From assembly GCA_963770835.1 (NCBI GenBank), contig CAVYRH010000011.1, positions 64,001 through 128,000 of the forward strand: a stretch of DNA of 64,000 bases, given 5' to 3'. The DNA comes from an uncultured Pseudomonadota bacterium. Its GTDB lineage: Bacteria; Oederibacteriota; Muellerivitia; Muellerivitales; Muellerivitaceae. Positions 29,885-48,433 of the stretch are shown here, in pieces. The notes under the pieces were generated by a model. It was not told the origin of the DNA. It ran no database searches and saw only the letters and a list, made by a program, of their open reading frames with translations. Within the stretch, counting starts at the first letter, position 1, and every line of letters begins with the position of its first letter. A program made the translations under genes and the position numbers.

Positions 29885-29910
29885 GTCCACGACGGGGACC
29901 CATCGTGGAC
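29885..29910 (+). repeat. Palindromic array site 1 (intron-occupied)
   Basis: GTCCACGACGGGGACCCATCGTGGAC. Confidence 0.9.
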
Positions 29911-30463
29911 ATCGTGCCAGAGGAGGGTTTGCAGAGCCAGCAGGTGAGGGAGTAGGCCGATGAGGGTCAACCCAAGTCCTGACCAGGTAATCACCAGAGA
30001 GCCTGGAAGTCAGCCCCCGGCGTAGGATCGAGAGGTCCTGCCCGAAACGGGGTCATAAACCTCATTTAGTGAGGGAACAATCCAGCAGTCCGCAACATCA
30101 AGTGAATCCTGCCGCTTCGTGAATGGGACACCGAAAGGTGCAAGGGGATGCCGAGCCGCGTGTCTACTGGCGAAGGCCACGATCCCGCTGAAGAATCTGG
30201 TAGCAAGCGGGGCAAGTCCTCCGGAGTATGGGGAACGGAATGTTGGAAAGGCTATGCAAGCAAGCTGGGAGATCCTACCCGCCAAAAGACTTGCCGCTAT
30301 AAGGCTAAAACCGAAAAGAGGCAAGGGTGGGAGGAAGTCGGAGGGGGTCACAGTACCGATGAAGGGGTGGACAACAAAACCACCCTGAGGGAAGGACCCC
30401 TGCTTCAACCATGTGTCTCAAAGAAGGTAGGCGCTGGAGCATGCCCCAAAAGGGCCAACAACT

Positions 30464-31986
30464 GATATGAATGAGCCAGTCAAGCCCGCTGGTTTTTCCT
30501 TTGGTTTTATCCTACTCTTTTCCACCTCAAGGCCCTGCGAAAAGCCCTGATCTCGAAAGCCCGGCTTGTTTCGACGATGAATCAAACTGATATTCGCGTG
30601 TTAGACCCATTGCTGGTTCCAGGGACGCAAGATTTTCATTCGTCGGGAGCTGCCTCGATCTCTGATCGTGGGTCGTCGCAGGCTTAGGCCTTTGCGCCAC
30701 AGAGTTGTACCGAGGGTTCTCCAAATCGTTGCCAAGCTTCCGGAAACAGGGTTCTTCCTTCATGACCTTGTTAAACCATTCCTGTTGTTTCCTGGGCGAT
30801 GGCCCACACAAATCCAGCCAACTCCCGGGCTACGGCCACCACTACTTTTTGGATGGGCTTGTTACGTTGGGTCATTTTTAGAAACTTTTTGTACAGACGA
30901 TCCTGTGCTCTGCGGGCGATCTTTAAAATCTCCACCGGACAACCCTCCCGCCTTTTTTCTAAAACCACGCCGACCGACTTCCCATGGCGGTAACTCCAAG
31001 CCGATTCCACAAGAATCCGTCTCAAATGGGCGTTCCCGGTCTTGGTGATTCCTCCCCGACGGATTTTTCCACCTGAACTGCTTTCACATATCCCCAAACC
31101 CGCGTAACCCATGAAATTACGAGCGCTCTCAAATCGCCTCAAATCTTGGCCTTCCACCGCCAAGGTCATGGCGCTCAAGGTATCAACCCCTTTCAGGCAC
31201 CTCAAATGCTTGACCAGTTTCCTGTAGGGTTCTTGGCTGGCCATCTCCTCCACTCGGCTCGTCAAACTCCTCAACCGCTCATCTGCCTCTTGCTTCCCGC
31301 GGACATATGCCTCGAAAGTCTCATGCAGTTCCAGAGGTTCGAACTTTTGGGTTTTCAGCCATGCCTCATGGGCTGATCTCCAATTCTTAGCTTCTCGAAA
31401 GATACGACCTTGCCGAAGAAAGAAATTCGACAACCGGTGCCGGGCCTTTTGCCGGTCTTCTAGGGCATCCTCACGAACTCGAACCAGATCCCGACAGGCT
31501 TCCTCTTGGATGGTCGGAACCCGCACTTCCGTCAGCTCTCCCGCCCTCCAAAGACGGGCCAACTTTTCCGCATCTCGGCGGTCTGTCTTCACCCGATCCC
31601 CGGCTTTCACTGGAATTTTCCCAGGGGCGATTACGACGCACTTCAACCCCTTTTGGGTTAATTGCCGGTGGATGTCATATCCACAAGGGCCCGCCTCGTA
31701 CACAAACGTTATTGACCCTCGTCCTTCGTACTTACCCAGCATTTTCCCCAATGCTTTTGGGGTGTTCTCGATTGTAAAAATATCCTTCACATTTTCGGCC
31801 CTAGCCGGCAGGACCGCACCTACCACCGTATCCTTATGGACATCCAACCCGACCACCGTGATATTATTTTCCATGAGCCAGCCCTCCGTATGCGGATAGG
31901 CTCCCTCAAGGAGCAACCCGCGAATTAGGGCCCTTCAACAAGGCCCGTTTTATTTTACGCAGGCCGCTGGCTCATTCATGTTATCT
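30464..31986 (-). mobile_element. IS110-family element, IS1111-type
   Basis: 13-bp subterminal inverted repeats ATGAATGAGCCAG / CTGGCTCATTCAT; CT core at both ends; ends defined by comparison with the uninterrupted intron copies. Confidence 0.9.
30771..31874 (-). CDS. IS110 transposase (DEDD RuvC-like)
   Basis: VGLDVHK; YEAGPCG; KTDRRDA; SSGG...GITKTGN..LR. Confidence 0.93.
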   Translation of the reverse strand: MENNITVVGLDVHKDTVVGAVLPARAENVKDIFTIENTPKALGKMLGKYEGRGSITFVYEAGPCGYDIHRQLTQKGLKCVVIAPGKIPVKAGDRVKTDRRDAEKLARLWRAGELTEVRVPTIQEEACRDLVRVREDALEDRQKARHRLSNFFLRQGRIFREAKNWRSAHEAWLKTQKFEPLELHETFEAYVRGKQEADERLRSLTSRVEEMASQEPYRKLVKHLRCLKGVDTLSAMTLAVEGQDLRRFESARNFMGYAGLGICESSSGGKIRRGGITKTGNAHLRRILVESAWSYRHGKSVGVVLEKRREGCPVEILKIARRAQDRLYKKFLKMTQRNKPIQKVVVAVARELAGFVWAIAQETTGMV

Positions 31987-32271
31987 CTGTAGTACCAAAG
32001 CGCGAGGCCTTTGACAACAGGCACTATGCCGAGCGGCCAAGGGGGAAGTCGAACCTGTAAAGCCGCCGGAGGAGAGGTTGTCGGAAAGCCGTATGATCGA
32101 AAAGGTCACGTACGGTTTGACGAGGGGGCGCTGGAAACGAAGTGATGAGGGAACCTCGTTGGGGCACGGAACCGGAAACGGGGAAACAGATCAAGGAACC
32201 CTCTGCACACCATCGCGCCAGTGCTCTACTCTGCAAGGAAAATTGAAAACGGTTAAGCGCAAAGGAAGGGC

Positions 32272-43382: not shown

Positions 43383-43397
43383 AAAAATGATTCACCT

Positions 43398-43423
43398 GTC
43401 CACGGCGGGGACCCGTCGTGGAC
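43398..43423 (+). repeat. Palindromic array site 7 (intron-occupied)
   Basis: GTCCACGGCGGGGACCCGTCGTGGAC. Confidence 0.9.
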
Positions 43424-45405
43424 ATCGTGCCAGGAACAAGGGTGTAGAAGCCAGCAGGTGAGGCTTGATATAAGCCGAGTCCTGACGGGGTAACCGCCTG
43501 AGGGCCCCGAAGTCAGCCTCCGTGGCAAGGTCGAGAGGCCTTGCCCGAAACGAGGTCATAAACCTTCGATTAGGAAGGGAACAATCTTACAGTCCGCAAC
43601 ATCAAGTGAATCCTGCCGCGTCGTGAAGAGTCCGCCGAAAGGCGTAAGAGGAGGCCGAGCCTCGTGTCCACGGGCGAAGGCAACAATCTCACCCTCAATA
43701 CAGGATGGGGTGGGGCGAATCCTCCGGCGTATAGGGAACGGAATGTGGGAAAGGCTGCTACATCAACCTGGGAGATCCTACCCGCCAAAAGACTTGCCGC
43801 TATAAGGCTAAAACCGAAAAGTGGTAAGGGTGGGAGGAAGTCGGAGGGGGCAGTAGTACCGATGAAGGGAAGACAACAAAACTTCCCGGAGGGAAGGGCC
43901 CCTGCTTCAACCAAGCAACCAAAAGAAGTGGAGCATGGAGAATGCCTGAAAAGGCTAACAACTCAGAAGACCAAGTGCGCCAATTCCAGAGGGAGCTATA
44001 TCGAGCGGCCAAGAGGAGCCCGAACCGACGCTTTCATGCGTTATACGACAAGCTCACCCGGTGGGACGTGCTTGTGGAGTCATGGAATCAGGTAAGGGCA
44101 AACCAAGGGCATGGTGGGGTGGATGGAAAGAGTTTGGAGGATATAGAGAAAGAGGGTGTAGGACTCTTTCTCCGGCAAATCCGGGAAGAACTCAGAGCGG
44201 GGACGTATCGGCCACAACCGGTCAAGCGGGTAGAAATACCGAAACCGGATGGCGGAAAGCGGCCACTTGGAATACCGGTTATTCGGGATCGTGTGGTACA
44301 AGCCGCCTGTCGTAAGATGGTCGAACCTATTTTTGAGGCAGATTTCCTGGAAGGTTCCTATGGCTTTCGGCCCAAGCGTTCAGCACATCAAGCTCACGAG
44401 GAAATCCTGAAATGGATAGATCGTGGGTGCAGATTTGTGGTGGATGGAGATATTCGAAAATATTTCGACTCCATTGACCATGCCAAGCTGATGGTGCTGA
44501 TGTGTCAAAGGATCAGTGACAAGAAGATTTTGGAACTCATCCAAAGGTGGCTCGAAGCGGGGGTATTGGCGGAAGGTAGGCTTATGCCCACCTCCGAAGG
44601 TACTCCTCAAGGTGGGGTGATTTCCCCATTACTTTCCAATATTTTCCTTCACCTGTTAGACAAGGTCTGGAACAAAAGATACAAGCAACTTGGAAAACTG
44701 GTGCGTTACGCTGACGATTTTGTGGTGTTATGTCCAACACAACAAAAGGCGGAAGAAAGTCTGAAGGTGCTCAAGAGATTACTTGGGCGGTTGGGGTTGG
44801 AAATGCACCCAGAAAAGACGAGGCTGGTGGAAATGGGACCAGGAAAGGATGGTTTTGATTTCCTTGGTTTCCATTACAGGATATGCCGACCCAATAAGAA
44901 GAGGGGAAAAGCATACATCAAAAGCTGGCCCAAGCGTAAATCCATGGAGAAGATCACTGAGAGGATAAAAGCGGTGACTTCGGAGAAATGGCGGCTGTCG
45001 CTTTCAATGGAAGAATTGGTAAAAACTCTGAATCCGATTTTGAGGGGTTGGGCCAATTATTTCAAAGTGGGGACAAGCTGGAAACAGTTTGATAAGGTGG
45101 ATTTATTTACATACCGAAGGCTATTGTTATTCCGAAGGCGAAAGCATCGTCAGAGGATAATGAATTGGTCGGGGGTCGAAGATGAATTCAAAAGGTTAGG
45201 CCTGTATCGGCTATCTAGACGTGCCATTGTTGCTTGAATGCCGCCGAAATAAAGGTTGTCGGAAAGCCGTATGATCGAAAAGGTCACGTACGGTTTGATG
45301 AGGGGGCACTGGAAACGTGGTTATGAGAGCCGGACTGAGGCCCAATTCGAAAGGGTTGGATTAGCCACCGTACTCTAATGCATACGCGCCAGTGCTCTAC
45401 TCTGC
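43424..45405 (+). mobile_element. RT-encoding group II intron
   Basis: Ribozyme domains around an RT ORF; domain V at ~45263-45296; domain VI ends CTCTACTCTGC. Confidence 0.93.
43942..45237 (+). CDS. ltrA: Group II intron reverse transcriptase/maturase without an endonuclease domain
   Basis: RPLGIP..RDRVVQ; GTPQGGVISPLLSN; YADD; FDFLGF; LRGWANYF; no HNH domain. Confidence 0.95.
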   Translation: MPEKANNSEDQVRQFQRELYRAAKRSPNRRFHALYDKLTRWDVLVESWNQVRANQGHGGVDGKSLEDIEKEGVGLFLRQIREELRAGTYRPQPVKRVEIPKPDGGKRPLGIPVIRDRVVQAACRKMVEPIFEADFLEGSYGFRPKRSAHQAHEEILKWIDRGCRFVVDGDIRKYFDSIDHAKLMVLMCQRISDKKILELIQRWLEAGVLAEGRLMPTSEGTPQGGVISPLLSNIFLHLLDKVWNKRYKQLGKLVRYADDFVVLCPTQQKAEESLKVLKRLLGRLGLEMHPEKTRLVEMGPGKDGFDFLGFHYRICRPNKKRGKAYIKSWPKRKSMEKITERIKAVTSEKWRLSLSMEELVKTLNPILRGWANYFKVGTSWKQFDKVDLFTYRRLLLFRRRKHRQRIMNWSGVEDEFKRLGLYRLSRRAIVA

Positions 45406-45462
45406 AAAGAAATAGGTAAAAGACGCACCACCCTTGAAGTGTTTAATTAAAGGCAACTCAAT

Positions 45463-45923: not shown

Positions 45924-46724
45924 ATCGTGCCAGAGGAGGGTTTGCAGAGCCAGCAGGTGAGGGAGTAGGCCGATGAGGGTCAACCCAAGTCCTGACCAGG
46001 TAATCACCAGAGAGCCTGGAAGTCAGCCCCCGGCGTAGGATCGAGAGGTCCTGCCCGAAACGGGGTCATAAACCTCATTTAGTGAGGGAACAATCCAGCA
46101 GTCCGCAACATCAAGTGAATCCTGCCGCTTCGTGAATGGGACACCGAAAGGTGCAAGGGGATGCCGAGCCGCGTGTCTACTGGCGAAGGCCACGATCCCG
46201 CTGAAGAATCTGGTAGCAAGCGGGGCAAGTCCTCCGGAGTATGGGGAACGGAATGTTGGAAAGGCTATGCAAGCAAGCTGGGAGATCCTACCCGCCAAAA
46301 GACTTGCCGCTATAAGGCTAAAACCGAAAAGAGGCAAGGGTGGGAGGAAGTCGGAGGGGGTCACAGTACCGATGAAGGGGTGGACAACAAAACCACCCTG
46401 AGGGAAGGACCCCTGCTTCAACCATGTGTCTCAAAGAAGGTAGGCGCTGGAGCATGCCCCAAAAGGGCCAACAACTCTGTAGTACCAAAGCGCGAGGCCT
46501 TTGACAACAGGCACTATGCCGAGCGGCCAAGGGGGAAGTCGAACCTGTAAAGCCGCCGGAGGAGAGGTTGTCGGAAAGCCGTATGATCGAAAAGGTCACG
46601 TACGGTTTGACGAGGGGGCGCTGGAAACGAAGTGATGAGGGAACCTCGTTGGGGCACGGAACCGGAAACGGGGAAACAGATCAAGGAACCCTCTGCACAC
46701 CATCGCGCCAGTGCTCTACTCTGC
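45924..46724 (+). mobile_element. ORF-less group II intron, copy 2 (801 nt)
   Basis: Ribozyme domains retained, RT ORF deleted. Confidence 0.92.
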
Positions 46725-47632: not shown

Positions 47633-48433
47633 ATCGTGCCAGAGGAGGGTTTGCAGAGCCAGCAGGTGAGGGAGTAGGCCGATGAGGGTCAACCCAAGTC
47701 CTGACCAGGTAATCACCAGAGAGCCTGGAAGTCAGCCCCCGGCGTAGGATCGAGAGGTCCTGCCCGAAACGGGGTCATAAACCTCATTTAGTGAGGGAAC
47801 AATCCAGCAGTCCGCAACATCAAGTGAATCCTGCCGCTTCGTGAATGGGACACCGAAAGGTGCAAGGGGATGCCGAGCCGCGTGTCTACTGGCGAAGGCC
47901 ACGATCCCGCTGAAGAATCTGGTAGCAAGCGGGGCAAGTCCTCCGGAGTATGGGGAACGGAATGTTGGAAAGGCTATGCAAGCAAGCTGGGAGATCCTAC
48001 CCGCCAAAAGACTTGCCGCTATAAGGCTAAAACCGAAAAGAGGCAAGGGTGGGAGGAAGTCGGAGGGGGTCACAGTACCGATGAAGGGGTGGACAACAAA
48101 ACCACCCTGAGGGAAGGACCCCTGCTTCAACCATGTGTCTCAAAGAAGGTAGGCGCTGGAGCATGCCCCAAAAGGGCCAACAACTCTGTAGTACCAAAGC
48201 GCGAGGCCTTTGACAACAGGCACTATGCCGAGCGGCCAAGGGGGAAGTCGAACCTGTAAAGCCGCCGGAGGAGAGGTTGTCGGAAAGCCGTATGATCGAA
48301 AAGGTCACGTACGGTTTGACGAGGGGGCGCTGGAAACGAAGTGATGAGGGAACCTCGTTGGGGCACGGAACCGGAAACGGGGAAACAGATCAAGGAACCC
48401 TCTGCACACCATCGCGCCAGTGCTCTACTCTGC
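47633..48433 (+). mobile_element. ORF-less group II intron, copy 3 (801 nt)
   Basis: Appears identical to copy 2. Confidence 0.92.

Follow-up and report, generated by a model that had tools for sequence, protein, structure and literature searches.

A bacterial group II intron family whose first and penultimate nucleotides appear to have changed together

In a 64,000-nucleotide stretch of bacterial DNA, hereafter the window, an intron reads UCGUG at its 5' extremity and GC at its 3' extremity, where the group II consensus is GUGYG...AY. Are these its true ends and, if so, how could such an intron splice? The contact that nucleotide 1 makes with the penultimate nucleotide of group II introns, and its role in the second splicing step, are established (PMC4238363, PMC3669008; for group II context see also PMC6224600, PMC4748821, PMC4028801, PMC4424553, PMC3552965). 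We consider it highly probable that the element is a group II intron, intact and encoding an RT, in which U1 and G(n-1) likely form an alternative non-Watson-Crick end-to-end pair needed for exon ligation. Directly visible in the DNA are the boundaries, the complementarities of EBS1, EBS2 and EBS3, a gamma G opposite the last C, an intact RT, and ends that are never mixed.

The intron covers positions 43425-45405 on the forward strand (1981 nt, 5'-UCGUG...CUCUGC-3'). An earlier sequence-only reading had quoted these end sequences at 43418-45410, where they are found as given, and had placed the 5' splice site after either GGAC or GGACA. Both boundaries were fixed with an ORF-less copy in G000 (C4:389639), the genome to which the window belongs, that splits a coding gene having an intron-less paralog. 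Four registers were tried, and only the excision of exactly TCGTG...CTCTGC gives a single 710-aa frame; the same excision yields one alignment across paralog residues 19-723. These boundaries are unique because there is no terminal redundancy. Alignment to empty alleles had been proposed as a check and could be carried out at this site. Intron-less homologs of the gene were matched in 21 of 30 relatives, and all 14 homologous loci compared are in frame at the insertion spot (two further rows were chance opposite-strand matches). One of them, L161, has matching Gly-Lys-Asp-His-His codons with two A's within the Lys codon. Reading frame and homologs thus decide for GGACA and against GGAC. As judged from these frames, the splice site is after GGACA, the A before UCGUG is the last exon base (A43424), and the pair is U1 with G(n-1). 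The interrupted 710-aa gene is otherwise intact and presumably encodes a protein resembling a glycoside hydrolase. Since the copy splits an intact gene, expression of that gene would require the host to splice out a U...G intron precisely.

Two other explanations of the ends were set aside. A start at GUGCC, with ATC kept in the exon, breaks the reading frame, and the bases concerned form a domain I helix. An assembly error is ruled out, as the same ends occur in genomes G048, G064 and G070; a metagenome contig also spans 43397-45406 with one differing letter.

A further possibility is that the intron starts with an extra A (AUCGUG), so that the contact would be A...G, as had been suggested, or so that a 5'-extended intron would splice upstream of GUGYG. 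5'-extended introns do exist (PMC4424553). Moreover, A directly follows GGAC in 69 of the 74 empty copies of the palindromic target described below, and A also follows the intron in 17 of 18 G000 copies, which resembles a GGAC|A target; positions 4-9 of the EBS1 loop can pair with GTGGAC. However, removing this A with the intron shifts the frame of the host gene at C4:389639 and conflicts with the intron-less orthologs. The base also varies with the target: one G048 copy (L118/L147), otherwise equal, has G in its place. Canonical relatives show the same A before G1, and in genome G067 an intron with the same EBS1 and entirely canonical ends, GUGUG...AC (L178), sits after the same GGACA. The earlier observation that ATC is found only with introns consequently stands for TC and fails for A. 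We regard an extra 5' A as scarcely credible. Because the boundaries 43425-45405 are fixed and the core elements are intact, the change is from G1.A(n-1) to U1.G(n-1) and not an A...G swap.

Pairing with the exons agrees with this placement. EBS1 pairs best at the mapped register in all 37 insertions of the family described below (mean 5.5 of 6 pairs, versus 1.5 one base upstream), a result that is not independent evidence since the hexamer was defined by our own choice as loop positions 3-8, after canonical relatives. EBS1 alone does not settle the register, as loop positions 4-9 would suit the GGAC register. On the 3' side, EBS3 was taken as the base that closes a GUAN bulge of domain I. It covaries with the base that opens the 3' exon (U/A in 34 insertions, C/G in one, G/C in one; the remaining insertion is without 3' exon), and this covariation maps the 3' end to GC rather than to an AY. 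The sole G000 copy with a 3' exon G is the one with EBS3 C. A comes next in 17 of 17 copies with EBS3 U, while empty sites have it in 38 of 69 cases (Fisher p 1.9e-4). That the intron is almost always followed by A, which had lent itself to the GGAC|A reading, is therefore explained by EBS3 being U.

With the boundaries placed after A43424 and C45405, the parts of a group II ribozyme can be located, all on the + strand. IBS1 (TGGACA, 43419-43424), the last six nucleotides of the 5' exon, is complementary to EBS1 (UGUCCA, 43665-43670), which is preceded by the delta nucleotide G43664. A 4-nt EBS2 (43628-43631) is deduced from covariation with exon positions -13 to -10 or -14 to -11; the likely IBS2 of the window copy (-14 to -11, 43411-43414) forms three of four pairs with it and covaries with EBS2 across types. 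EBS3 (U43732) pairs with IBS3 (A45406), the first 3' exon base. In the 5' end UCGUG (43425-43429), U1 and C2 replace G1 and U2, while G3, Y4 and G5 are canonical, and a strand of the domain I basal helix follows directly (43430-43434). The alpha loop of domain IB (43494-43500), read by eye from the alignment, likely pairs with alpha' (43701-43708), which, as in IIE/IIF introns, is in the loop of the next stem beyond that of EBS1. In J2/3 (GGA, 43843-43845), G43843 is gamma and has C45405, the final base of the intron, as its predicted partner. Wherever readable, copies combine a gamma G with a final C, and distant relatives with gamma C end in G. Domain V (45262-45296), with an AGC triad and a 5-nt loop, is recognized by Rfam RF00029 and by its fold. 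Domain VI (45300-45402) has a 10-bp stem in the fold, whereas its 3-bp basal helix and its bulge were drawn by eye, the bulge being absent from the minimum free energy structure. The predicted bulged branch A45399 lies, as had been noted, 7 nt from an end in TGC, within the usual 7-8 nt. In this 3' end UGC (45403-45405), G45404 is the penultimate base replacing the usual A. Rfam matches for domain I and domain V-VI occur at four places of the window, and the window intron scores 44.6 bits with RF00029 and 58.1 bits with RF02003. The domain IV ORF (43942-45237) encodes an RT/maturase of 431 aa with YADD at 256 (TIGR04416, 428 bits); in a Pfam search it matches RVT_1 and GIIM only, with no match to an endonuclease domain. 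By this annotation the three EBS elements, gamma-gamma', the predicted branch A and the protein are intact.

If the ends are as mapped, do U1 and G(n-1) depend on each other? Relatives were collected with search patterns left free at the first two and the last two nucleotides; one duplicate row was dropped, and copies with only one end on a contig were left out. Among the resulting 37 full-length insertions in 8 genomes, 29 have U...G and 8 have G...A ends, and none is mixed. The joint change of first and penultimate nucleotides that had been proposed is thereby supported. Given with their neighbours, the ends are UC...GC (29), GC...AC (6) and GU...AC (2). C2 is a separate lineage trait since it occurs with both end states; counting back three bases from the branch A in domain VI, by eye, it is always accompanied there by U, and U2 by C or U. 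The 37 insertions are kin and reduce to 15 types, and close pairs across the two states are found. The window intron itself (U...G) is closest in RT to a G...A type, type C (80% RT identity), and a U...G copy on contig C3 has 93% RT identity, and about 94% identity in domain I, with G...A copies on C2 and C26. Covariation thus makes the interdependence of U1 and G(n-1) likely.

Trees of the 15 types were built without nucleotides 1-5 and the last two bases. Both end states occur in both RT subclades, the one with the window intron and type C and the one with the C3 and C2/C26 copies. Neither state is set apart from the other on the trees for domain I, for domain V-VI or for the RT; they are interleaved on all three. 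The domain I tree calls for 3 changes of end state (3-4 in bootstrap trees) and the domain V-VI tree for 5 (3-6). None of 200 bootstrap trees allows a single change, and well-supported branches force only 2. The domain trees disagree with each other, so that domains are mosaic among types; because of this, repeated origin is indistinguishable from one origin followed by recombination. The G...A state is probably ancestral, since the outgroup G004 and nearly all other end-readable relatives in a tree of 100 proteins are without G(n-1). In that tree of 100 RTs, a set without named class E, F and g2-g6 references, the window RT lineage forms its own clade with support 99.

The match between the two ends might also be historical: U1 and G(n-1) would have arisen once, each tolerated alone because the contact is relaxed or rescued by the maturase, and would have spread by recombination or conversion among co-resident copies. 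The mosaic copies revealed by the disagreeing trees, the mere two forced changes, relatives that end in AUG and tolerate G or U at nucleotide 1, and the activity of RmInt1 with a penultimate C (PMC4238363) all speak for it. Yet 0.8-3.5 kb separate the two ends, and what lies in between is reassorted, without one mixed insertion among the 37. Single changes are also harmful in known introns: penultimate G alone impairs the second step in RmInt1 (PMC4238363), and TeI4h with the change T1G is less mobile, at 0.5% instead of 3.4% and at 8.4% instead of 39% (PMC2882425). We therefore hold a purely historical match to be improbable, and an interdependent U1.G(n-1) pair to be the better reading.

Several more distant relatives have ends of their own. 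A large sister group (46-54% RT identity; loci L007, L032, L046, L049, L050, L052 and L056 among others) is inserted behind ATG and has C at gamma; its introns start with GUGCG, UUGCG or UCGCG and end in AUG. As these AUG-ending introns start with G or U, nucleotide 1 can vary without G(n-1) elsewhere in the broad group. L047:1648-1740, whose RT is 46% identical and lies outside the 100-protein tree, seems to have UGC as its 3' end too, the 5' end being off the contig. By EBS1 pairing, L098, L099 and L109 appear to start with GYUGCG (6 nt, one longer than usual) and keep ends in AC. L053:105-2020, which follows a terminator-like hairpin and has C at gamma, starts with GCGUG and has AG as its apparent end.

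Are these ends a sign of decay? The window holds three more insertions, all on the + strand and without ORF: an 800-nt relative (45925-46724), a second 800-nt copy (47634-48433) and a copy carrying an IS110 element (29912-32234), whose transposase is on the - strand (30771-31916). All four window copies read TCGTG...CTCTGC and directly follow a 28-bp palindrome. At the intron studied here this palindrome (43397-43424, +) is left whole, the intron lying right after its last base A43424. Genome G000 carries 18 full-length copies of several types and two cut by contig ends; four copies with G1...AC ends had been missed by the sequence-only reading. Among the ORF-less copies of G000, ten share at least 99.9% identity, and among the RT-coding copies of G048, ten share at least 99.3%; within each set every copy has a site of its own. 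Near-identical introns with other flanks are present in soil and peat metagenomes. At many sites insertion is precise, and the target is not duplicated. The near-identity of U...G copies across so many sites therefore indicates recent mobility and argues against decay, as had been supposed from the shared ends; from this spread of copies the ribozyme is presumably active.

The target is itself a repeated element. G000 has 84 copies of the palindrome in one orientation, 10 of them occupied by the U...G/G...A intron family. Because several insertions (C4:389639, C26:878013 and one behind another intron) are without the left palindrome arm, the full hairpin is not needed. The palindromic site is not attC-like, and the intron is inserted in the gene-sense strand. 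Between 29885 and 48943 of the window, palindrome sites are found at 29885, 41787, 42557, about 43398, 45898, 47607 and 48918. The palindrome separates small genes, and is also present in G048, G054 and G070. As in a cassette array, one and the same downstream sequence can be found again with other neighbours upstream. Two more group II intron families use it at other positions. The first has 11 copies in G000 (for example C3:2255-3487 and C11:545-1777), an RT 40% identical, and inserts in mid-palindrome; the second inserts just before the right arm. Loci of other families on the same palindrome include L024, L031, L187 and L195. Three intron lineages thus share one palindrome, and some sites hold two introns in tandem.

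Other elements in turn enter these introns. Several copies, ORF-less and RT-coding, carry an IS110 element of about 1.5 kb where domain IV starts (the window copy mentioned above and G000 copies on C2, C3, C20 and C26), and introns of this family appear to be a recurrent IS110 target. In the twintron L010 (G070 C42:349-3020), another RT-coding group II intron lies inside an ORF-less U...G intron, near domains II-III, and L096 shows similar nesting. Some G...A relatives have been retargeted, with EBS1 and EBS2 changed jointly with the target sites (G000 C2:234143 and C19:427461 on the - strand, G054 C2, G004 C10); the C2/C19 type follows another repeated motif, also present on C5 and C10.

How, then, would the intron work? 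Its RNA would fold as an IIE/IIF-like ribozyme, in which A45399 would attack the bond before U43425 and thus branch onto U1. U1 would then pair with G45404, as G1 does with A(n-1) elsewhere, and help to place the 3' splice site, so that exons would be ligated with EBS3 and gamma fixing that site. The ribonucleoprotein is expected to reverse-splice into DNA just after the TGGACA of the palindrome when the next base is A and, being without endonuclease, would probably use priming at the replication fork, as is the general rule (PMC4424553). ORF-less copies would presumably have moved in trans. Mixed ends (U...A, G...G) would presumably have been purged through poor splicing or movement, and the joint switch would have arisen, or been passed on by recombination, at least 2-3 times in the family.

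Branching onto U1 has a competitor: the U...G form might splice mainly by hydrolysis as a linear intron, U1 remaining unbranched and the end pair serving in another context or only in reverse splicing. In vitro, hydrolysis is the only route by which IIE introns self-splice (PMC3753933), and a IIC structure shows G1 and U2, both replaced here, contacting domain VI before branching (PMC10733145). Against this, the bulged A and its neighbours are alike in U...G and G...A copies. Spread to many sites, as seen in this family, is also more usual for lariat introns. Finally, TeI4h uses U1 in both splicing and reverse splicing (PMC2882425). Hydrolytic splicing is in our opinion rather unlikely, and branching onto U1, followed by U1.G(n-1) pairing, is retained.

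Public data were searched for products of splicing and for further copies. Contigs of four RNA runs cover the intron with almost no flanks, DNA being possibly present, and contain no spliced exon junction, lariat or circle. One relative's RNA contig starts at 43423, two bases before the intron, which carries no weight since contigs cannot show RNA ends. An empty allele of the window locus is absent from 31 family genomes and, as a joint, from four DNA runs; likewise, the 3' flanks of the 18 G000 copies have no second, empty copy within G000. Viral contigs gave no match to two patterns, and a GTDB-wide scan with a single protein gave one locus. A metagenome scan gave at least 80 relatives at 38-55% identity, the close clade being absent among the matches listed. 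On plasmids the best RT is 52% identical, and no RNA match exceeds 35% of the query. A literature search covering few subscription papers found no description of the window intron lineage.

Could the U.G state be favoured by the target itself? The U.G copies seen all share one site motif, and its arm contains the same five letters as the new 5' end. In the window, the first five intron bases (43425-43429) equal target bases -9 to -5 (43416-43420), and at most sites they are complementary to the left palindrome arm. This repeat could be chance, the source of a recurrent G1-to-U change, or a competing RNA pairing; the match is not required, since G1 copies use the same site. A stronger version of the story is that the family flips repeatedly between G1.A(n-1) and U1.G(n-1) among co-resident introns sharing a target, the U.G state being adaptive and U1 perhaps templated from, or tuned to, the site. 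We put this forward tentatively, as a doubtful possibility. If true, nature would here have run, with replicates, a compensation experiment on an end-to-end contact shared with the spliceosome.

The contact between first and penultimate nucleotides connects the two steps of splicing, and its parallel in spliceosomal introns is the first-last pair. In the literature covered, prior support for U-G consisted of mutants of one yeast intron and isolated natural cases. The present family adds natural pairs of close relatives, such as the C3 copy and its C2 and C26 counterparts, that differ exactly in the end pair; with such matched relatives, a four-way end swap can be tested on native backgrounds. 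In practice, boundary finders fixed on GUGYG...AY will mis-call introns of this kind.

Several known systems share features with the window intron. The nearest in its ends is TeI4h of Thermosynechococcus elongatus, although the window RT shows similarity only at E 1e-53 to the 562-aa maturase of PDB 6me0, which we take to be that of TeI4h. Like the window intron, TeI4h is a mobile bacterial group II intron with U1 and a natural U-G first/penultimate pair (PMC2882425, PMC8283771 Table 1A). U1 is favoured over G1 in its mobility assays, where more than 600 products had T as their first letter (PMC2882425). TeI4h, a IIB intron with an endonuclease domain in its protein, is the single deviant listed among its relatives. 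In contrast, the window family has no endonuclease domain, a IIE/IIF-type RNA, C2, a U...G majority and several switches with G...A. In ai5gamma, U-G is one of the two compensatory combinations listed for G1/A(n-1) (Chanfreau and Jacquier 1993, in PMC8283771 Table 1A; PMC4238363); there, however, lab mutants of a yeast mitochondrial IIB intron are concerned, whereas the double change of the window family is natural and recurrent. Two more introns also place U1 with G(n-1): SPAM3 of Ceratocystis mitochondria (UUGCG...GC; PMC8208691) and UHB.I2 (UUGCG...GU), which sits just after the cassette-array site attC (PMC7923331). Unlike the window intron, both are IIB with U at nucleotide 2, and in the parts of these sources covered they are described as single oddities, with no discussion of compensation. 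UUGCG is also a rare start of plant introns (PMC6867995).

In its RNA, the window intron resembles IIE/IIF introns (bacterial classes E, F and g-varieties). The alpha' in the DId3 stem loop, the 5-nt domain V loop, an apparent EBS2 and a protein without endonuclease are shared (PMC3753933, PMC3552965), and these features, alpha' among them by inspection, suggest an IIE/IIF-like lineage. The differences are the non-canonical ends and the RT clade of its own, supported in a set of 100 without named references. Insertion beside inverted repeats recalls IIC introns, of which IIC-attC introns occur in cassette arrays (PMC4424553, PMC7923331). However, membership in IIC or IIC-attC, with a short domain V, a reduced EBS1, no EBS2 and a needed upstream stem-loop, is rejected: the window intron has an AGC triad, a full-length domain V, a 6-nt EBS1 and an EBS2, does not require a hairpin, and uses a site that is not attC-like. 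Nor does it belong to the 5'-extended introns (fungal rRNA IIB1, C.te.I1), as it has no extra 5' base and retains EBS2 and the branch A. Measured against these systems, the U-G pair itself, already in print for TeI4h and for a compensatory mutant, is not a new mechanism; although the class E/F consensus of PMC4028801 may list U or C starts, what is likely new is the IIE/IIF-like lineage, the UC start, and the repeated joint switching among co-resident relatives.
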